Part shown: positions 1 through 29,223 of the stretch, piece after piece
Numbering within the stretch: position 1 is the stretch's first letter
How the letters are laid out: each line of letters begins with the position of its first letter
Origin: Mizuhopecten yessoensis
Lineage: Eukaryota
Direction: 5' to 3'
NCBI RefSeq assembly: GCF_002113885.1
Contig: NW_018407955.1
Coordinates: 800,480-836,648, forward strand
Length of the DNA: 36,169 nt
The notes under the pieces: model-generated
Databases searched by the model: none
Told to the model about the DNA's origin: nothing
What the model saw: only the letters and a program-made list of their open reading frames with translations
Translations under genes and position numbers: made by a program

Positions 1-172
1 ACTATTTTTGTTGACCTTTGTCCATGGAAGGTCCCTGCAAAATTTCATTGAAATTGGTTCAGGGGTTTTGGAGAAGAAGTCGAAAATGTAAATTGTTTAC
101 GGACGCACGACGGACGACGGACAAAAGGCGATCGCAATAGGTCACTTGAGACTTTGTCTCAGGTGACCTAAA
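1..172 (+). repeat. Second (diverged) copy of the tandem-repeat element terminus (last unit + ACGG-rich tract + hairpin), cut by the window start
   Basis: 84-172 (aaatgtaaattgtttacggacgcacgacggacgacggacaaaaggcgatcgcaataggtcacttgagactttgtctcaggtgacctaaaaa) aligns with 14264-14368. Confidence 0.65.
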
Positions 173-1189
173 AATTGTTTCACATTGGGGCATCTTCAAA
201 ATCCAAGGGCTCAACCCTCGATACATATACCTTCTCTACACACTTGAAATTATGTCCTTACAAAACCGAAGACTCACGGTAAGCTTTTTGATTCGTTAAA
301 AGTATAAAAGCATAACCAATCACTAGGCTGATACCTGTCCTTTGAAGATTACCAGGGAGCTTCAAAGAATGTCGATTTAACGATTTTGCTGCCAAATGTT
401 TTCTTTGATCTCCATCAATGAAAGTCTACTTTTATAATCCTCAATGTGTTGCGTAAAAAAACTTTGATTTTGTTACGACATATATTCCAGGAGTGTAGAA
501 AAGATATCTATATTGAGAATGGCACTCTTGGATATCAAAGAGAGTGTCAGGGTGAATTGTAACGTTACATAGGATGACACAATAAAGAGTTACATCCCAG
601 TCATCTGTCGATGTGAAAGTTAGATGCATAAAACAAAATATCATAAAAAAATTGTTGTAACTACGTGTTTAAAAATGTTCTTTAGATATCTTTCTCTGAT
701 AAGTAGCAAATAATAACTACTTTCTACAAAGACATTGTTTAAACGATATTTTCTTTGTGCATCATTACAGTCATGGTACGAATATACAGTGAAACCAAGA
801 AACCAATCTCATGCATATGGCCCATGGCTGTGAGTATTTCCTACATTAAATTTTATGTATTGATGTAATCCCTTTTTTTGAAGAAAACTTCCAAAGAACA
901 CCAGGTTGTACCGATATTCTGTCTAATCAGGACAATAAAGTATATCCCATAGTATATATGTGTGTCCGATTAAATGGTTTTTGCCTACCCTATATTGAAA
1001 TATAGATTTATTTTTTCGATTCCAATTTTTATCATATTTATTTGCACTTTCTTCTGATGACTCTGTGAGAGTACCTGTGTTCATCATGCATATCGATATT
1101 TGTACCAGTCACAGAGACCACATACATTACATCAACATAAAACCTGCTGCAAGTGAATTTGTGTTAATTAATTAACACATGGAAAATAC

Positions 1190-1249
1190 CTCAAAGTGGT
1201 TGTTGAAGGCGAGCTGGATCCTTAACCGTGCATGGTCAGATGTCTCTAC
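1190..1249 (-). CDS. MVP: MVP exon 17 (VETSDHARLRIQLAFNNHFE); last MVP exon found in the window
   Basis: Acceptor gaacag, donor GAG|GTATTT. Matches [20 protein letters not shown]. 60 nt, phase 0. The next expected exon ([19 protein letters not shown]) was not found in 1-1189. Confidence 0.88.
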
Positions 1250-1721
1250 CTGTTCAAAAATTCAAATAAGTTGCATGACATTTTTTTCATTTTCAAAAGA
1301 AAATTTAATTCAACAATGAAATAAAAATCTAAACTAGAATGAAATTGATTTTGAATAACAATAACGAATTAATGCTACTTAAAATTACATTTTTTTTTCC
1401 AAATCTGATATTTTGGTCCCATTTGTCAAAAACATGATTTAGCCTAACAACAACTTCATGCAAAACTTAAATCTAATGTAATTTCAAGAAAAATGAAATT
1501 CAAAAATGATTTTTTTATGAATAGGGATTCAAAATATTCATCATAAAGCCAGAAACACAAATAATTGTACGCTTCAAGGTATTTCTCAAAAATGATTTTT
1601 TGGAAAATTTGTATTTTGTAAATTTTTAAGTGAATCAGTGTTTGAAAAACAGGCCCCTGGCCTTCATTTTATCTGATAAACCGATAATTACTTAACAATC
1701 CAAATAATAACAAGAATGAAA

Positions 1722-1962
1722 ACATTGTTTTGGTTTGTTTGTTTGTTAGTGCTTCACGTCCGACTAACAGCAATGGTCATTTAACCCTTACACCTAAGTT
1801 GACCACAATGGACTCACCATGATAAATGTATGGTAGAGTCTACTAAAGTTACCTAGGGGTGAAAGGGTTAAGGACGTGCCCTTGACCCCGTGGTGGAGGG
1901 TTAGTGATCCTAGATGTCGGACATCTTCATCACTCGGCCACCACGGCCCCTCAAAGCTTTGT
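1722..1962 (-). mobile_element. tRNA-derived SINE copy X1 (minus strand; head GGGGCCGTGGTGGCCGAGTG, (AAAC)n tail)
   Basis: Shares head and body with the copies at 7510-7803 and 9443-9690. A- and B-box-like motifs are on the minus strand. (GTTT)n on the plus strand at 1725-1745. Confidence 0.7.
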
Positions 1963-2043
1963 CACACCACCAAAGGTTCACTTTTACACTTGAGATCCAA
2001 CGGCCAAAAGTAATTCAAAATTTCAGAAGTACGGTATACATAC

Positions 2044-2123
2044 TTCTAGAATGTCTGTGATAAAGTCTGGTCCCAGCATCAGACACAGAGATTTCATTGC
2101 ACCCTCCTTCTTAGGTTTACCAG
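2044..2123 (-). CDS. MVP: MVP exon 16 ((A)GKPKKEGAMKSLCLMLGPDFITDILE)
   Basis: Acceptor attctag, donor GAA|GTATGT. Matches [29 protein letters not shown]. 80 nt. Confidence 0.9.
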
Positions 2124-2965
2124 CTAGAATATAAAAAAAACTCGAATAAAAACTTAAATTGTACAGAAACATACAAACAAATTAATAATAATAATAATTC
2201 AAGGTTCTTAGATACATGTACCGCTTTATCACAACCTAGTTTGTAGGTCATCTCAAAGTGGTTCACAAATTATTTTCCCTGGTTATAGGGCCTTTGCAAC
2301 CAGCCAATATGTTTCTCAACTCCCTGGGGAGCATACAGCCAGTGCTGCCATTTCTAGGTCGCATTTGATTGTGACTATGTAATTACAGATTATATATTTA
2401 TCGCCAAAAACAAGCCTAATTGGGGGGAAAATGCTGGCCGTCAAAATAAGTTCTTAATTCCTTGCAGTCAAACATACCTCAAAAATAAGCTGTTCCTGAA
2501 AAAAGGCCTAATATTCCAAGGAAAACATCATGTCATGAATTGATGTCCTGTGGTCAAACACCAGGTATTTCCAATTGTTACAATTTAAATTTGTTTATTG
2601 ACATTTCCTGGTTTCCATCAGTATTTATCTCTATCCTTGCTAGTTAGTCTGACAATCATAGTGATCTCATTTCTTGCAATGAAAATAAGCAATTCTTGTC
2701 TTACTGTCTAAAAGGCTACGGAAATAAGACTACAAAAATGTATATGATAATAAGCCAGCTTTGAAAATAAGCCCGAGATCCCTTACTATATACAGAAAAT
2801 AAACCTTAGATTCCTTACTTAAAATAGAAAATAAGCCCGAGATTCCTTCCTAAAAATAAAAAATAAGCCACAGCTTATTATCAAGATTTTAGGGTATATA
2901 TAACATGCTTAAAGTTCAAAGTACCATACCAGCAGATCAGAAAGTTTGTATCCTTTTGACCTTAC

Positions 2966-3062
2966 CACTTAGGCTGAGGACATTGAAATTTTCGTGAGGT
3001 CCGAGGATGACCAGGTCTGGTCCGAACACGACACGTGCTGTCTTCTCCAGGTAATTATACAC
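2966..3062 (-). CDS. MVP: MVP exon 15 ([32 protein letters not shown]-)
   Basis: Acceptor atcaacag, donor G|GTAAGG. Matches [32 protein letters not shown]. 97 nt. Overlaps ORF 2937..3128(-). Confidence 0.9.
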
Positions 3063-3414
3063 CTGTTGATGCAGGTAAAAATATTTGATAAATACACCTG
3101 TCTCAACTAAAAACAGAAAAACACTCATCTCAAAAATAAAGTTGGATATTATTTTATGGTTACAGTTCAGTTATAAATAAAGTTTTGACCATGTCAACAA
3201 ATGTCTTTTCTTCTTAATGAATTTTTAAAACTATTCCCAGGATCTCCTTTTTAACCCTGATCATCTGAAGAGTGACAGTTAAGTCATTTTACATGAGATA
3301 CATAATTATTCATTACAACAAGAAATGGCAATTGTACATTAAAATCATGTATAACTCATTATGATATACCGGTACATACAAATTGTTGAAGTTGTCTCCC
3401 TTAAACATCTTTAA

Positions 3415-7509: not shown

Positions 7510-7803
7510 TTTAGTTTGTTTGTGTTTTAATTCCTATTAACAACTTTAGTCATTTAAGGACTTGCCAGATTTTTGTGGTGGAGGAAAACCGGAGTTCCCA
7601 GAGGAAACCACCAACCTAGTGTGGTAGCCAAAACCGGAAACTGCCCACCTTGGCCTTGAAACCTTAACCCATTGGTAGAGGGCTAGTGGTCACAGATGGT
7701 CAGATGCCTTAACCACTTGGCTGATATGGTCCCATGGTCAAACATATCAGCCTTAACCACTTGGCTGATATGGTCCCATGGTCAAACATATCAGTCTTCG
7801 GAA
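7510..7803 (-). mobile_element. tRNA-derived SINE copy X2 with a 44-bp tandem duplication of the head (7716-7759 / 7760-7803)
   Basis: The body at 7556-7715 aligns with 9497-9690. The unit ccttaaccacttggctgatatggtcccatggtcaaacatatcag is duplicated. Degenerate (GTTT)n tail at 7512-7528. Confidence 0.7.
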
Positions 7804-8498
7804 CAACAAATGTTTTTTCTTAAGATACAAAGTTTTTCTTTTGCTTCAATCTGTATTAGGAGGAGGGCCTAAATGTACATATCTCTTACTTTAATATTTT
7901 TTACCTTTGTTAACACTGTATTTACACTTGCACTGCATATCCACTCTATTAAACTACCAAATAAAGTAAGTGTCTGTAGCACAATGAATGCAAAAGAATT
8001 GCGGTTCATTCATTAAGCTCTTGGTCATTGTGACTCTTGACTCTTAACAAAGTTGAGTAGCTTCAAATCAAACACTCAAGTGCTGTTCTGTCAATATCTC
8101 CCTTGAAGGCATCAAAGTTATCAGAGAAAGCCTTCAAACAAATGACTAATTTTTTGGAGTGTTAATAAAAAAGATTAAACATAATATTTTGTTATTGTCA
8201 TACAAACACACTTGTATGTATTGTTGTGGCTTCCTCTTGTATCTGTTGCCTAACAGTTAATTATTTACCCTGTCACCCTATGTAACTTGAGTAGACCATT
8301 TATGCATTGACATGGATGAGTCCATTATTGTCTACAGGGGCAAAAGGGTTAAAGTATAATATCTATATATAAGTTCAAACATTTGACAAAGGTAATTTCA
8401 TATACATATATATATTCAATGAAAAACATACAACTTTTTAAATGTAAAGATTGACATCTTTTCCATAAAAACTTGAAAACAGACAACTCTCTGAATAC

Positions 8499-8592
8499 CT
8501 TTTGTCAACAACATTGACATGTAATGGCGGAGTGTAGTCTATTGGGCCGCGTATCATCCAACGGTCACCTGGACTTCTCTTCACGGCCTTAC
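8499..8592 (-). CDS. MVP: MVP exon 11 ((G)[30 protein letters not shown]-)
   Basis: Acceptor ttacccag, donor AG|GTATTC. Matches [29 protein letters not shown]. 94 nt. Overlaps ORF 8438..8707(-). Confidence 0.88.
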
Positions 8593-9079
8593 CTGGGTAA
8601 CGAAATACAAGTCTCATAAACAAAATGTTTACAAACACAGTAATACATTGTTGCTTGATGAGCATATTTTTCATGCAGGTCATATTCATATTGTTATTAT
8701 TATACATATCTACATAAAGTTAGGAAAACAAATATTTGATTGCTTTCCTTGGCAAAATCTAAAGAAATTGTAGAGGGATGGCTAGAAATATATATTCGGC
8801 AAAATATTCTCACAAATTATTCATGGATACACTGTAAATGAATGTTCCCAAAGAATCTGCAGATTTGTGAAACAGTTCACCTGATTAATTCTACATTTCA
8901 GTAAACATGTGAGGTTTCTTACTCCCAAAGAAAACTCACTCTTGCTGAATTTTGTATTTCTAGCAGGTGAAAGTGTTTTTTGTCGAATTTTCTCTCATCC
9001 ATTCAAATACTATGAACTTTACTTGAGATTTAATATTTCCTTCAGTATCAATGTGTGAGGTTTATTTTATATACAGTAC

Positions 9080-9853: not shown

Positions 9854-10817
9854 CTGCAAAACAAAATACAGAATTCTATTTTGAGTATTGTTTTTTTTTG
9901 GAGTGGTACACTGGATAACACACTCATCCTTTATTAAGACAAAAGGTTTTCAAATTCCTAATCAGACATGAGAAGGCATTTGATCATCTGCCCAGACTTT
10001 TATCTGGGTAACCTTGTTTCTTCCCTTATTAAGACCCTCTATGTGCTTTCATCCATTAACGTAGATAGGAAGTCCTTTTTCCTTATTGTTGTAAAATAAA
10101 TAAAGTTTATACAGGTTTACGAAATAAAAAAATTATCAGGAATTCAGCCCAAATGAGATCTAGACTGTTTCATAGCACCTGGACACTGGGGTACTGGTAG
10201 GAGTGGGTCGACCCCCGGTGTCGAAGGCAACCTGTGTTGACCTCTAAATAGGGTCTTTAAATGATTCGATAGACAAAGGTTTATTTCAGAACAGCCCTTT
10301 ATCTAATTATCCAGTTGTGAAGTTCAAATATATGTGATATTATTCCAGGCAAATCCTTAGAAAAAATAAGTTGTCAGTCTCAAATTCAATGTTATATGTT
10401 TGCCTTTGAAATTTTATAACAATTACACTCTAAGAGAAGTGGAATGGATACATTATCTTCAGGATTTCAACACAGTTTATTGAATAGATTTTTTATTTAT
10501 TTTATTTTATGGAATTTGATTATTATTTATTCAATCTTGTTGAATATAGCACCACCCTTTTTAAACAAATTCATCATACTCTAAGTTTCTGTAGTATACC
10601 TAGGGTTATTAAGGCGCACTCATCGTTATTTACCAGTACAGGGCAGTGGCGGATCCATAGACCTATCTGGGGGGAGGGGGGCATGTGGGGAAAACTTCAG
10701 GAAAATAGTGAAAATACATGATTTTTAAAGAAATTCTCAGGGTGGGGGGTTCCTGAAGCCCAAAAAAACCCTCTGGATCTGCCACTGCAGGGTAGAATCA
10801 AGTTTTACAACTCATGT

Positions 10818-11290
10818 GTGTTTCCACATTTTATCTACTGTAGTACTATAAGGTCTGGCTGCTCTGCAAATTTGATGGATAAATTGTTTAAAGCTCAAAA
10901 GCAGGCAGCACGTGTTATGCTTGATGTACCATATGACACACCTTCGTGTGTTATGTTTTCAGATCTAAAATGGTTACCTATTGAGGAAGTTTTTAGATTT
11001 AAGAAGCTGTGTATGTTTTACATATGTATTCATGGCAAGGTACCAAATTATTTGTGTGATAATATAACACTTGTTAAAGATGAGCACACAAGAAATACCA
11101 GACATTCAAATGCAAACAATGTTGTTGTCCCTAAGCAAAGAACTTCTTTTTATTCAAAACAATTTTAACATCTGGTGCTCAAGCTTGGAATAGTCTACCA
11201 ACTGATTTAAAAGACATTCAACATTTAAATTATTTCAGGGGCAGACTCATAAATTATTTTTTGAATTCTTAAACTATCATTTTTTTTATA
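10818..11290 (+). mobile_element. LINE ORF2 C-terminal fragment (CR1/L2-like tail) in an MVP intron
   Basis: ORF 10818..11168 reads YCSTIRSGCSANLMDKLFKAQKQAARVML...LKWLPIEEVFRFKKLCMFYICIHGKVPNYL...HTRNTRHSNANNVVVPKQRTSFYSKQF. It continues frameshifted as AWNSLPTDLKDIQHLNYFRGRL, the typical C-terminal region of CR1/L2-type ORF2. Short direct repeats (ggtggtctcttaa x3) follow at 11600-11690 and may mark the 3' terminus. Confidence 0.6.
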
Positions 11291-13275: not shown

Positions 13276-13407
13276 GCCTGCATAAACATTTGCGATCCGC
13301 CAGGATTATATACCCGAAATTGATACATTTAAAAATGAACAAACCGGTTGTTCTGCATAAACAAACGGTTCCTGGGTTATGTCGAGTCGATGTTTGTTAA
13401 TTTTTAC

Positions 13408-13477
13408 CTTTTCATATACGTCCGGGAGGTAGTCTCCTGTCGTGTAATGGATCCACTCCTCACCGGTCACACGCTCC
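13408..13477 (-). CDS. MVP: MVP exon 6 ((V)[23 protein letters not shown])
   Basis: Acceptor ctttaaag, donor AAG|GTAAAA. Matches [24 protein letters not shown]. 70 nt. Confidence 0.85.
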
Positions 13478-13911
13478 CTTTAAAGAAAAATCTATCAAGT
13501 TGACATGATTAAAAGAATTTAATAAGTAGACCTTTTTATGACACCAAATAGTACTTAAGGTTTTGTGACGGGAGAACGTATTCAAAAAGAGAGCCACCAT
13601 TATATTCCCCAGCGGAAATCTTGCAAAATTCTATTTTTAGTGTTAGTGACCTTGACCTTGAGCCAGTCATGCCCAGAATTAACACGGTTTTTGACATTAC
13701 AAAGGGCAACAATCAAGCTATCATTCAGACTACTCCAACAGTGTTAGAGGTTTCCACGGCGAGATACTTTATACAGGAGCGTAGTCGGCAAATTCATATC
13801 CGATAGAAACAAGAGGCCCATGGGCCTTAACGGTCACCTGAGTCCTACAATATTTATTTTTGTTGTTGAAATATGTACCAATTTGAGTAAAAAATAGTAT
13901 AATGTTAACTT

Positions 13912-14372
13912 AACTTTGTCAGGACCATGAGCTGATCATTCCTAGACCAATTTTAAGTGAGATCGGCCTATTAGAACTTAGTAGCAAAATAGCGGCCATG
14001 GCAGCCAAATTGTATTTCTGATTGACCCGAAAAATAACAACACTTTGTCAGGACCATGAGGCGATCATTCCTACCAACTTTCAGTTCAATCGGTCCAGCA
14101 GAACTTGACTTTAAGTTTGAAATAGGTTTTCAAAATGGCGGCCGTGGCGGCCATATTGGATTTCTGATCGACCCGAAAAATAACAACACTTTGTCAGGAC
14201 CATGAGGCGATCATTCCTACCAACTTTCAGTTCAATCGGCCCAGCAGAACTTGACTTTAAGTTTGAAATGTAAAATGTTAACGGACGACGGATGACAGAC
14301 GACGGACGACGACGGACGAAAACGGATAGCAATAGGTCACTTGAGCTAAAGCTCAGGTGACCTAAAAAGGCA
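13912..14372 (+). repeat. Tandem-repeat element: ~146-bp unit x ~2.6 followed by an ACGG-rich tract and a terminal hairpin (aggtcacttgag..ctcaggtgacct)
   Basis: Units start at 13912, 14042 and 14188 (actttgtcaggaccatgaggcgatcattcctaccaa...). Tail 14271-14372 is acggacgacggatgacagacgacggacgacgacggacgaaaacgg + hairpin + ctaaaaa. Confidence 0.75.
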
Positions 14373-14689
14373 TACCAGCGGCCACTTATGTTATAGGAGT
14401 ATCATTCAGACAAGAAAAACCATGTCAAATTCACTTTTTAGCAACTGTTAGAATTCCCATGATTCTGTGTGCCTATTCTGTAGTGCACTTCTGGCGATGT
14501 TATTGTGATATGAGTACTACGCCAGAACATCACCAGAATATCAACGCTAGGGCGGCAATATTCTGGGCATTTCTGGCAACACGTTCTGGTGAACTGATTT
14601 ATGTGCAGCGGTATTGCTGCAATATAGCCGTAATATCACTGCAGACTTTCTCATTTTTGTAAGGGCTTGCTTGGCCATGTTCTACATAC

Positions 14690-14781
14690 ACGCCATTGCA
14701 GTCCGTGAAGTACACAGTTGCGCTGAGTCTCAGTCCCTCTCCATTCTGCAACACTATCGGTTCAACCATCTTCTCTATTTC
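14690..14781 (-). CDS. MVP: MVP exon 5 (EIEKMVEPIVLQNGEGLRLSATVYFTDCNG-)
   Basis: Acceptor atttgtag, donor GT|GTATGT chosen by phase. Matches [32 protein letters not shown]. 92 nt, ends phase 2. Confidence 0.75.
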
Positions 14782-15199
14782 CTACAAATTAAACAAACAA
14801 AATTAAGAAAGTTAATTTCTTAAGAATTCAGCTTAAAACAGAAAACATTGATCCAACATCCAAACTATACATCCTATGGGCTACCACAGAATGATACATT
14901 TGGGACAAACTGGCTGCGATGAAACTTTGCAGTTTTAAATGAACAACACTGGAACCAATTTACCTTGCTACCATTACATAACTTTCTATTACCGGTAGTG
15001 GGGTTGTATGTAACTATACTCATATTTCAAGGGTGAAGATGACCATTTCCTTGTCCCAACCTGAGTGAGACATTCTGAAAAATTTCTTGATGTCGCAATG
15101 AAGCTAAATGAGTCAAGTCACTTTTTATGCATGAACATTATCTCTTTCCAACAATAGACAAAACACTACGAATTTCCAATGCTGATTTGTGTACATACA

Positions 15200-16170: not shown

Positions 16171-16409
16171 TCTTTAATTTTGTCAAAGCATCTTACAGGC
16201 CCCGGGATCATGACACAATTTAAGACTGAAGTGTTTGCTTAGCCAATCACATATAACGTTACATTTCATGAAATTATTGTGATTGGTTGACTTCAGACAA
16301 TTTTTGACTGAAGATCGATTCATGATCTCGTGAATCAAAATCAGAACCATTGGATTCCAAGGTAGGCTATACAGTTGAAACTGGAGGGATGAGAGATGAA
16401 ATGACTTAC

Positions 16410-16634
16410 CGCTTCAGGAGAAGGGAAATAGGTGAGGGGGCCTTTCAGCTGCCACTGGTCCCCAGCCTGATATTTCCCCATCTCATTTTCAAAGTCCACC
16501 AGTGCTCTCAGTCTGATTGCATGGTTAGCCTTTACCGTAGGGAGGGGCTTCAAGGCTGGCGCATAGCTTGACCTACCTGTTTGGTACTCAGGGGCCCCAC
16601 TAAGGACCTCGCCAGGCAACAGGGGAAAGGGCTC
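16410..16634 (-). CDS. MVP: MVP exon 4 (EPFPLLPGEVL...ANHAIRLRALVDFENEMGKYQAGDQWQLKGPLTYFPSPEA)
   Basis: Acceptor attgtag, donor GCG|GTAAGT. Matches DPFPLYPGEVL...[35 protein letters not shown]. 225 nt, phase 0 to 0. Overlaps six-frame ORF 16341..16619(-). Confidence 0.9.
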
Positions 16635-22143: not shown

Positions 22144-22891
22144 ACGCCTGACAAAAGAATCAAAGTACTGTACCTAACGGAAGCAGAGACTTTTCTCTAC
22201 TGTCGGGCACAACCGGAAGTTAGAGACCCGAGGTACATAACAAGTATAATATATATACTTCCCTATAAGAACAAGAATATATACAATAAATACACATTCC
22301 AAATATACAATTATTTTTTCTTCTTATATATATACATTATTACAAGCCTTCTTGGCCAATTTTTAACCTCCCCCAACGATACAAAAACACTAGTTTCGGA
22401 CAAAGGAGTCGCCTCCAAATTTCACCAAAATATAAGGATAGGAGATAGCATAGGCGACTCCAACCCACCGCCTGAGGGAAGGCAACTACCATCGCGCCGA
22501 CAGAACATCGACTACCGTCGGTGAGATGAAACCCGCAAGGGCGGATTCATGTAGGCGCTAAACCCTTCAACCAACCAACCGTCTCCGTGTCATAGGAGGA
22601 TAGCGAGGACTACACTAAGGACGTCGTTCCGTGGACCGCAGTAGCTGTGAGTGACAGCCTGTCCACATCTGAGGAGCTGTCCGACCTCAGGGCGTGACCT
22701 GGATGGGCAGGACTTTAGAATCTCCGAGGGCCTGGTAAGCGGCAACTTACCCCCTCACGTCGACCAAACAGTGAAGTGTAGACGTAAAACCCATCAACCA
22801 ACCTACCAACCGTCTCTGTGTTTCGTCTGCTGGACAATCGAACTACTCGGTAATGAAGCGGACGTAAATCCAATTAATCAATTAATCAATT

Positions 22892-22927
<36 letters not shown>
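22144..22927 (+). mobile_element. Putative retroelement insertion with an (AATC)n 3' tail, interrupting a duplicated ~65-bp segment
   Basis: A GC-rich body with an internal repeat (aacccttcaaccaaccaaccgtctccgtgt / aacccatcaaccaacctaccaaccgtctctgtgt) ends in (CAAT/AATC)n at 22871-22927. The flanks 22104-22143 and 22932-22955 match the continuous sequence 21573-21640. Confidence 0.4.
22871..22927. repeat. (AATC)n / (CAATTAAT)n microsatellite
   Basis: caattaatcaattaatcaattaatcaatcaatcaatcaatcaatcaatc. Confidence 0.95.
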
Positions 22928-23353: not shown

Positions 23354-24540
23354 TTACAGATAGCTGCACAGTTTCATAGAGAACAGATGTGCAATGATAA
23401 GACAGGCCGTTCCATATATCCACGGTTCGGTGAAGGAATGAGTGTTTCCGGATAATTTGAGTTCGTGTCCTCTGGTGGTGGTGGTGGTGGTGGTGTTCTT
23501 GTTAGGTTTGATGAAAGTCGACACCTCGGGATCATACTTCTCGGTCATGATTTTATATAGTTCTATCATGTCTCCTCTGGCTCTTCGATATGCCAATGTT
23601 GGTAATTTCAGGCGTTGAAGTCTCTCGGGGTAGGATAGATTAGCCATTCCGGGTATTAGCTTGGTAGCTCTCCTTTGTACATTTTCTATCGATTCTATCT
23701 GTTTAATGAGATGGGGGCTCCAGACTTGGTTGACATACTCTAGATGTGGTCTCACAAGTCCTTTGTATACAGCTGTGAATGTTGTCAGATCCATGTATTC
23801 CATAGTACGCCTTATTACACCCATTATAGAGTTGGCTTTGTTGATTTTTTCAGATATATGTACATTAAATGCTAATTTGTTGTCAATGGTGACTCCAATA
23901 TCTTTCTCATGTTCTGTATAGGGAAGTTCTTTCCCATCATCTAGGTTGTAGGTGAAGTTGTCAATATCACTGTTGCCAATTCGCATTGCTTTGCATTTGT
24001 CTTGGTGGAAAAATAGAAGCCACTTTTTGTTCCATGATTGAGCTTTCAGCAGGTCTTCCTGTAGGCCCTCGCAATCTTGGGTGTTACATATAGCACGGTA
24101 GAATTTTGTGTCATCTGCGAAAAGGTATGTGTTGGTTTCCGTACTTGTTATATTCGGGAGGTCATTTACAAATAGGACTGGGCCTAGGACGGATCCTTGT
24201 GGAATACCACTGCTCACCTCCTTCCAACATGACGTGTCTCCATTTATTGTTACGCGTTGTTTGCGATTTAGAAGAAAGGCTTTAATCCAGCTCGTGATTT
24301 TACCCGTAAATCCGTACATGCTCATTTTATGGACGAGTCGGTGGTGAGGGACCTTGTCAAATGCTTTCATAAAGTCACAGTACAGCACATCAATGCATCC
24401 TCCTGCATTACATCAAGAATTTATTTTCATCCAGTGGTTAATTACTTGAATTAACTGTAATACAGTTGATCTTTCTTGGATAAACCCAAATTGTTTCTTG
24501 CTGAATAATTGCTGCATAGGGACAGTGAAATAATGAACGC
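23354..24540 (-). mobile_element. CR1/L2-like non-LTR retrotransposon (LINE) fragment. Reverse transcriptase domain, 5'-truncated, one in-frame stop.
   Basis: ORF 23354..24388(-) has RT motifs LYCDFMKAFDKVPH, GIPQGSVLGPVLF and FADD, and the CR1-type C-terminal motif RLQRLKLPTLAYRRARGDMIELYKI. The frame continues upstream (QQLFSKKQFGFIQERSTVLQL) across a TGA near 24410. No endonuclease domain upstream. (GGT)7 encodes poly-Thr near the C-terminus (23471-23492). Confidence 0.85.
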
Positions 24541-27883: not shown

Positions 27884-28066
27884 CACGAGCAATTTCACAA
27901 ATGAATTCCTGTTTTTGCCAGGGAAAAGATTAAAAGAATCTTCACAAATGAATTCCTGTTTTTGCCAGGGAAATGATTAAAAGAATCTTCACAAATGAAT
28001 TCCTGTTTTTGCCAGGGAATGATTTAAAGAATCTTCACAAATGAATTCTTGTTTTTGACGGAGAAA
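27884..28066. repeat. Minisatellite, ~46-bp unit x4 (tcacaaatgaattcctgtttttgccagggaaaagattaaaagaatct)
   Basis: Four consecutive units; the last is diverged. Confidence 0.85.

Positions 28067-29191: not shown

Positions 29192-29223
<32 letters not shown>

Follow-up and report, generated by a model that had tools for sequence, protein, structure and literature searches.

A short array of 146-bp tandem repeats, accompanied by an (ACGG)-rich tract and a hairpin, lies in the window studied here (the whole stretch of DNA that was analysed, 36,169 nt), and it raises the question of what kind of element carries the array, on which strand that element reads and where it ends. The preliminary description of this DNA had likened the feature to satellite-carrying non-autonomous Helentron/Helitron or "pearl"-type elements. 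That class assignment was borne out: the termini were conserved over many copies, and the array was bounded by defined ends. The extent and polarity proposed at the time were not. We are confident that the main feature is a complete, non-coding, non-autonomous Helentron (HINE) on the minus strand, spanning ~13807-14368 (~556-562 bp) and located within an intron of the major vault protein (MVP) gene, itself on the minus strand. Older names for this kind of element are DINE-1-like, or tandem-repeat-containing "MITE" of the "pearl"/DTC84 type.

Read on the minus strand, the element begins with TTTTT, AGGTCACCTGAGCT, TT, AGCTCAAGTGACCT, ATTGCTATCCGTTTT and (GTCC/GTCG)n. It continues with 2.5 copies of the 146-bp monomer and a 63-nt unique segment, and ends with CTCAGGTGACC, GTTA, AGGCCCATGGGCCT, CTTGT and TT. 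The central tandem repeats (13906-14269, minus strand) comprised ~2.5 units of the monomer, of which the unit farthest from the microsatellite was truncated and diverged. Such short satDNA-like arrays are frequent in HINEs, though not obligatory. TRF detected a period of 146 with 2.0 copies and 94% match at 13985-14269, and self-BLAST added a diverged partial unit from 13906 (82% and 80% identity). The period given in the preliminary description was thus correct, and its count and start (~2.6 units from 13912) were revised to ~2.5 units from 13906. A Pfam search of the ORF within the main element gave no match.

The 5' boundary is a T-run (TTTTT on the minus strand, 14364-14368), inside which the element begins. 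When 13 copies were aligned (alignment A2), similarity started at an invariant TT directly before AGGTCACC, and the sequences upstream of it were unrelated. T was found at positions -4 to -1 in 71-85% of copies (110 5' modules, among the matches listed). The 5' subTIR, AGGTCACCTGAGCT, occupies 14350-14363 on the minus strand; its core GGTCACCTGAG (14352-14362) is complementary at 11 of 11 positions to 13832-13842. The 5' subTIR AGGTCACCTGAG begins 2 nt past the first invariant column (TT) of alignment A2; in HINEs, a 5' subTIR of ~11-15 bp lies within a few nucleotides of the 5' terminus. With up to one mismatch allowed, the 11-mer GGTCACCTGAG occurred five times in the window (expected, 0.34), always within the main element or a second copy at the window start, and this number was reached by 0 of 100 shuffles.

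An IR, AGCTCAAGTGACCT (14334-14347, minus strand), pairs with the 5' subTIR at 13 of 14 positions (93% complementary) across a gap of 2 nt; in HINEs this distance is 1-22 bp. On the plus strand, the resulting hairpin (14334-14363) reads AGGTCACTTGAGCT-AA-AGCTCAGGTGACCT and is followed by AAAAA at 14364-14368. Its folding energy as single-stranded DNA was -10.9 kcal/mol (z = -5.0 vs shuffles). The hairpin was therefore upheld, but the stem is not perfect as had been claimed: it is 14 bp long and contains one T.G mismatch. Among the matches listed, 71 of 110 related 5' modules had a perfect stem of 13 bp, and the hairpin stem was perfect in the commonest metagenome subfamily among the matches listed. 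The same hairpin position was mismatched in several subfamilies, including both window copies (14341/14356 and 146/162) and the metagenome loci L083, L030 and L002. On the element strand this shared mismatch is C.A, the IR having CTCAAG rather than CTCAGG. The spacer ATTGCTATCCGTTTT (14319-14333, minus strand) lies between the hairpin and the microsatellite, and an ATTGCTATGG-like spacer was kept across copies. The microsatellite itself (14281-14318, 38 nt) is (GTCC/GTCG)n on the minus strand and (ACGG/ACGA)n on the plus strand. It corresponds to the (ACGG)-rich tract reported earlier, for which TRF gave short-period rows over 14281-14326.

On the other side of the repeats, the unique part of the right (3') module (13843-13905, minus strand) separates the last repeat from the 3' subTIR. 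An inverted-repeat scan showed that the outer hairpin arm CTCAGGTGACC (14352-14362) has an 11/11 complement at 13832-13842, left of the repeats. This is the 3' subTIR, CTCAGGTGACC on the minus strand, a perfect 11-nt complement of the 5' subTIR core; it was kept in 12 other right modules (alignment A1). Four nucleotides past it lies a perfect 14-nt palindrome, AGGCCCATGGGCCT (13814-13827, minus strand). The string AGGCCCWTGGGCCTCTTGT had one occurrence without mismatch in the window (expected, 0.01). The palindrome was kept in 13 right modules, including that of L002 with its different subTIR (alignment A1). By itself it was thermodynamically ordinary (z = -0.2), and its conservation is what supports it. 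The 3' terminus (13807-13813, minus strand) consists of CTTGT and then TT. In alignment A1, CTCTTGT was invariant, and beyond it the flanks were unrelated and T-biased.

The arrangement of these modules determines the polarity of the element. In Cg_HINE of C. gigas, the left flank combines a 5' subTIR (11-12 bp long) and its complementary IR, at a distance of 1-12 bp, with a GTCY/GTCC/GTCK microsatellite; satDNA-like repeats occupy the centre, and the right flank carries a 3' subTIR and then a palindrome. Insertion is at T-rich/TT sites without target-site duplication (TSD) (PMC7492417). Since an (ACGG)n tract reads (GTCC)n on the other strand, the published HINE layout places the main element on the minus strand. 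The hairpin and the ACGG tract are the reverse complement of a 5' module (subTIR, IR and (GTCC)n), and they are therefore not a Helitron-like 3' hairpin terminus. The preliminary description had taken the hairpin for the 3' terminus and had looked for a 5' Helitron-like terminus at the opposite end. Comparison with the HINE layout in the literature (PMC7492417, PMC4067079) assigns the hairpin to the 5' module on the minus strand; the true 3' end is what lies opposite, and it carries the 3' subTIR (13832-13842) and the palindrome (13814-13827). Nor does the element start at 13912: it reaches left to ~13807, and its true 3' end (13807-13842) had been missed by those coordinates.

The opposite polarity would make the element a canonical non-autonomous Helitron on the plus strand, with the 30-bp hairpin as its 3' hairpin, a CTRR-like CTAA end and a 5' end lying leftward. 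On that strand the hairpin is indeed followed directly by CTAAAAA, which contains CTAA and so matches CTRR, and Helitrons have no target-site duplications. However, a canonical Helitron starts with 5' TC, ends with 3' CTRR ~11 bp after a palindrome of 16-20 nt and inserts between A and T (PMC4067079). In the window element, the CTAA end adjoins the hairpin without a spacer. The left end is ACAAGAGGCC..., the plus-strand left end is ACAAGAGG, and a TC start is present on neither strand. The minus strand ends with CTTGT(T), and the flanks on that strand are T/T. Moreover, the subTIR pair, the IR and the second palindrome found here are lacking in canonical Helitrons and present in Helentrons/HINEs. 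A canonical Helitron is accordingly very unlikely, and the minus-strand HINE is the reading that we retain.

Self-BLAST and motif scans for further family copies within the 36-kb window found only the two copies. The additional copies belong to a related animal host whose DNA is present in metagenome assemblies, and do not derive from the genome of the window itself. ORFs on the contigs carrying the family encode the animal domains Mab-21, COR, cadherin-like and Macro, indicating that these contigs are host DNA of an animal. The copies were reached by two routes. When the open frame of the element (14114-14401, minus strand) was used as a protein query, the matches were two spurious marine-metagenome ORFs, whose contigs carry the related elements L001 and L002. 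The second route used a pattern keyed on the 5' hairpin alone, TAGGTCACCTGAGN{6,14}GTGACCT, which was present on at least 120 metagenome contigs. Among the matches listed, 110 oriented 5' modules in 96 loci ran into an ATTGCTATGG-like spacer and a GTCC-type microsatellite. Blastn-short recovered 25 instances of the 3' module, which the pattern did not include, among the matches listed.

Ten complete elements of 267-1246 bp (nine metagenome elements and the window element, among the matches listed) had both ends in common and differed in central content. Among the nine metagenome elements, TRF assigned periods of 154-173 bp to four and no period to five, against 146 bp in the window element. 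Two of 12 automatic LF-RF pairings had been dropped, L082 (11 kb, a mis-oriented palindromic match) and L043 (cut at the contig end), and the pairing in L049 (4.7 kb) is uncertain. Both element boundaries were sharp, with unrelated, T-biased flanks. The flanks were T-rich at both ends, and no duplication was visible in ~10 complete copies. The elements form an interspersed multi-copy family with constant termini and unrelated flanks, as expected of HINEs. Constancy of the termini, one of the checks suggested in the preliminary description, was therefore confirmed at both ends among independent copies, with variable internal repeat content. A whole-window BLAST against 411 kb of fetched loci, performed in search of an empty site, gave no match to the flanks of the element. 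Past mobility of the main copy is probable from the behaviour of its family.

A homologue of the 146-bp monomer is present in both L001 and L002, and in L002 the subTIR-type motifs vary together. L001 contains TTTTTAGGTCACCTGAGAC-TTTG-TCTCATGGTGACCT, the microsatellite and at least three units of a 147-bp monomer. L002, which is complete, has AGCTCACCTGAGC-ATA-GCTCAAGTGAGCT, the microsatellite, 11 units of a 146-bp monomer and the right end CTCAGGTGAG-N6-AGGCCCTTTGGGCCT-CTTGT. The window monomer was homologous to the monomers of both L001 (z = 40 vs shuffles) and L002 (z = 21.6 vs shuffles). The subTIR of L002 is AGCTCACCTGAG, with a G-to-C change, and its IR (GTGAGCT) and 3' subTIR (CTCAGGTGAG) are altered to match. 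Despite the altered subTIR, the 3' palindrome box AGGCCCTTTGGGCCTCTTGT and CTCTTGT are unchanged in L002. Families that differ in their subTIRs and come from different hosts still had the 3' box AGGCCCWTGGGCCTCTTGT in common. That the 5' subTIR, the IR and the 3' subTIR co-vary from family to family offers a modest but useful clue to what the transposase reads. The features that mark L002 as a sister family are located at 89-114 and 1881-1916; right modules of the GAGC type were also present in L018, L033, L042 and L082.

We compared the element with systems described previously. Module order is identical to that of Cg_HINE of C. gigas (Vojvoda Zeljko et al. 2020, PMC7492417; Repbase Helitron-N*_CGi), as judged from the described layout. 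[quoted passage not shown] The distance from the microsatellite to the first repeat, which varies from 10 to 500 bp in Cg_HINE, is ~11 nt here. The host species also differs: the best named MVP match is to C. gigas, at 72% amino acid identity over one exon stretch. One C. gigas CL1 (Cg170-type) array segment from the supplement of PMC7492417 served as the sole reference monomer. Against it, the 146-bp monomer gave z = 1.2, which is not significant, and the commonest central repeat of the listed metagenome copies gave z = 5.1, indicating a resemblance to this lone segment.

DINE-1/HINE elements of Drosophila, mites and mosquitoes follow the same scheme as Cg_HINE (Thomas et al. 2014, PMC4067079), and for these hosts the link to autonomous Helentrons is established. 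The window element resembles them in its subTIRs, an IR nested with the 5' subTIR, the microsatellite, the central repeats and a 3' stem-loop, as well as in boundary T strings and, probably, a TT target and the lack of TSD; the resemblance is one of anatomy, and likeness in sequence would not be expected. Its 3' end is more compact than that of mite Helentrons, with ~5-7 nt from the palindrome to the 3' end (8-35 bp in mite Helentrons) and ~34-36 nt from the start of the 3' subTIR to the 3' end (38-60 in mite Helentrons). Viewed in plus-strand orientation, the element is also similar to pearl (CvA/CvE/CvG, Gaffney et al. 2003) and to DTC84 of Donax trunculus (Satovic & Plohl 2013, PMC3879986). 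In these, as here, L is followed by core repeats (1-5 units of ~160 bp), an (ACGG/ACGA) microsatellite and R. They also share an inverted motif of 11 bp, placed subterminally in L and at the terminus of R, and have A/AA at the ends. The ACGG motif is common to CvG, DTC84 and the window element (ACGG/ACGA). The monomer here is 146 bp long, the likeness to pearl/DTC84 concerns the layout, and the conserved intra-monomer palindrome of DTC84, TTGTCCGGACAA, is absent from the window monomer.

Pearl and DTC84 were originally classified as MITEs, and the same assignment here would imply a cut-and-paste element with terminal inverted repeats, moved by a DDE transposase and flanked by a dinucleotide AA/TT TSD. 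Such an origin would account for the short inverted repeats close to either end, the small size and high copy number, and the lack of coding capacity, and the earlier literature did name such elements MITEs with a putative AA TSD (PMC3879986). The repeats are asymmetric, however: one lies 2 nt from its end, whereas the other starts ~34-36 nt from its end, with a palindrome after it. Terminal T-runs of varying length do not amount to a demonstrable duplication of fixed length, and elements of the same architecture have been linked to autonomous Helentrons and re-classified (PMC4067079, PMC7492417). We regard a MITE as highly improbable. A fragment of a conventional satellite, or a SINE-like retroposon, placed beside a microsatellite and a hairpin by chance is scarcely credible and largely refuted: the 146-bp monomer is satellite-like in length and forms an 11-unit array in L002, but the window has only a 2.5-unit insert with defined ends and no satellite block, its termini recur on many contigs with unrelated flanks, termini of this kind also bound the L002 array, no tRNA-like or other RNA-family signal, as expected of the Pol III promoter-bearing head of a SINE (tRNA-, 5S- or 7SL-derived), was detected (ARAGORN, 0 genes; Rfam, 0 matches at E ≤ 1 in 13300-14900), and the A-run is the complement of the 5' T-run rather than a poly(A)/simple-repeat 3' tail.

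The HINE assignment extends to the second copy, which is cut by the window edge (1-174, minus strand). It consists of a T-run (170-174), a 5' subTIR (156-169), an IR (139-152), a microsatellite (~99-122) and a post-microsatellite segment (1-98); the repeats and the 3' end of this copy fall outside the window. Positions 34-174 showed 69% identity over 154 nt to 14216-14368 by self-BLAST. The hairpin of this copy (139-169; -12.1 kcal/mol, z = -6.2) is stronger than that of the main copy, and its apical stem shows compensatory changes, from GAGCT/AGCTC to GAGAC/GTCTC. The second terminus at 1-172 reported in the preliminary description is therefore genuine (34-174). What precedes it had been described as a diverged last unit; it is the conserved post-microsatellite segment and not clearly a 146-bp unit. 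Positions 1-175 matched L083 at 86.5% identity, and L083 carries 2.8 units of a 324-bp repeat (441-1359, 94% match) in place of the 146-bp units. The match to L083, together with its 324-bp repeat, indicates that the window-start copy represents a sister subfamily, which shares the 5' module, the microsatellite and the conserved post-microsatellite segment. L083, the closest relative of the window-start copy among the matches listed, thus has the same 5' module and a different cargo.

The gene around the two copies was examined using Pfam. Minus-strand ORFs matched Vault at 16344-16634 and 8441-8719 and Vault_3 at 2940-3170, and homologues included C. gigas "major vault protein alpha" (72% identity). 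The flanking Vault exons place the main element between MVP exons in sense orientation, and from these exons we infer that the main copy is intronic. The earlier statement that both copies are in MVP introns thus holds for the main copy, which lies between Vault-repeat exons; the window-start copy, for which just an upstream exon-like match (~1188-1251) was seen, may be intronic or may lie past the last exon mapped. Both copies do have the same orientation, as had been proposed, sense relative to the minus-strand MVP gene. The closest matches to the MVP exons had 76-86% nucleotide identity and therefore come from different species. Three 20-kb MVP loci (L127-L129) contained no element of the HINE family.

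What is known of the Helitron/Helentron superfamily suggests how the element would move. It would be mobilised in trans by the Rep-helicase(-endonuclease) transposase of an autonomous Helentron, which would recognise the 5' end by its subTIR and hairpin and the 3' end by its subTIR and palindrome. Rolling-circle ("peel-and-paste") single-strand transposition would start at the 5' subTIR/hairpin and stop at the 3' subTIR/palindrome, and integration would take place at T-rich (TT) sites without target-site duplication. The internal satellite-like array would be passive cargo, the number of units shifting by slippage or unequal exchange, and such elements could seed dispersed satDNA-like arrays in bivalve genomes. 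When the long ORFs of the fetched loci were scanned for an autonomous Helentron with these termini, none was found; the ORFs encoded ordinary animal domains and, in L085, one Helitron_like_N/DUF6570 fragment that is not tied to the termini. The L085 ORF at 2046-3155 (minus strand) contains DUF6570 and Helitron_like_N (Rep) and is followed by a zf-C2HC ORF at 1147-2124 (minus strand). A HINE 5' module stands at the contig end; both ORFs are upstream of it and share its strand. They are possibly the remnant of an autonomous Helitron/Helentron.

A broader reading, which we consider doubtful, is that one long-lived lineage of bivalve Helentron transposase with a tiny recognition signal is still active and shuttles a constrained 146-bp monomer between species-specific elements. 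The signal would consist of xxTCACCTGAG subTIRs, whose 5', IR and 3' copies co-vary, and the 3' box AGGCCCWTGGGCCTCTTGT. The monomer, with its box AAGTGTTGTTAYTTTT...GAAATCCAATATGGCCGCC, would then be under constraint of its own and not inert cargo. On this reading the two sense-oriented copies, taken as intronic, might in addition put strong hairpins into the MVP pre-mRNA.

HINEs of this kind are already well documented in bivalves, as Cg_HINE in oyster and as pearl, DTC84 and MgE (oysters, clams, mussels). The main element is a clean, complete example of the Helentron-derived elements that scatter short satellite-like arrays through bivalve genes. Its importance beyond annotation is small; both copies are transposable element sequence to be masked when the MVP locus is annotated. 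A full-text literature search for the subTIR and 3' box strings returned unrelated primer matches only. The termini, TTAGGTCACCTGAG...CTCAGGTGACC-N4-AGGCCCWTGGGCCTCTTGT, are a ready probe for counting the family and for searching for its autonomous partner.

Several other features were observed in the window. A 352-aa open frame at 23357-24412 (minus strand) matched RVT_1 (E = 1.4e-16) and represents a retrotransposon fragment, probably non-LTR, in the same gene region. A 148-aa open frame at 10722-11165 (plus strand; ...FSDLKWLPIEEVFRFKKLCMFYICIHGKVPNYLCD...) resembles the C-terminal tail of a retroelement ORF and had no Pfam match. Apart from the HINE sequence, the window matched the fetched loci solely at a (CAAT)14 microsatellite (22871-22927; L025 and L023). 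Short tandem arrays were present at 27894-28057 (47 bp x 3.5, 96%), 7706-7798 (44 bp x 2.1, 97%) and 2763-2869 (32 bp x 3.3, 81%), and a C30 homopolymer at 29193-29222; these may form part of further transposable elements. An inverted repeat of 18 nt (89% complementary; 13662-13679 and 14560-14577) brackets the HINE, ~130-200 nt away to either side. Insertion of the HINE in another inverted-repeat element may explain this, or the bracketing repeat may be a chance match.
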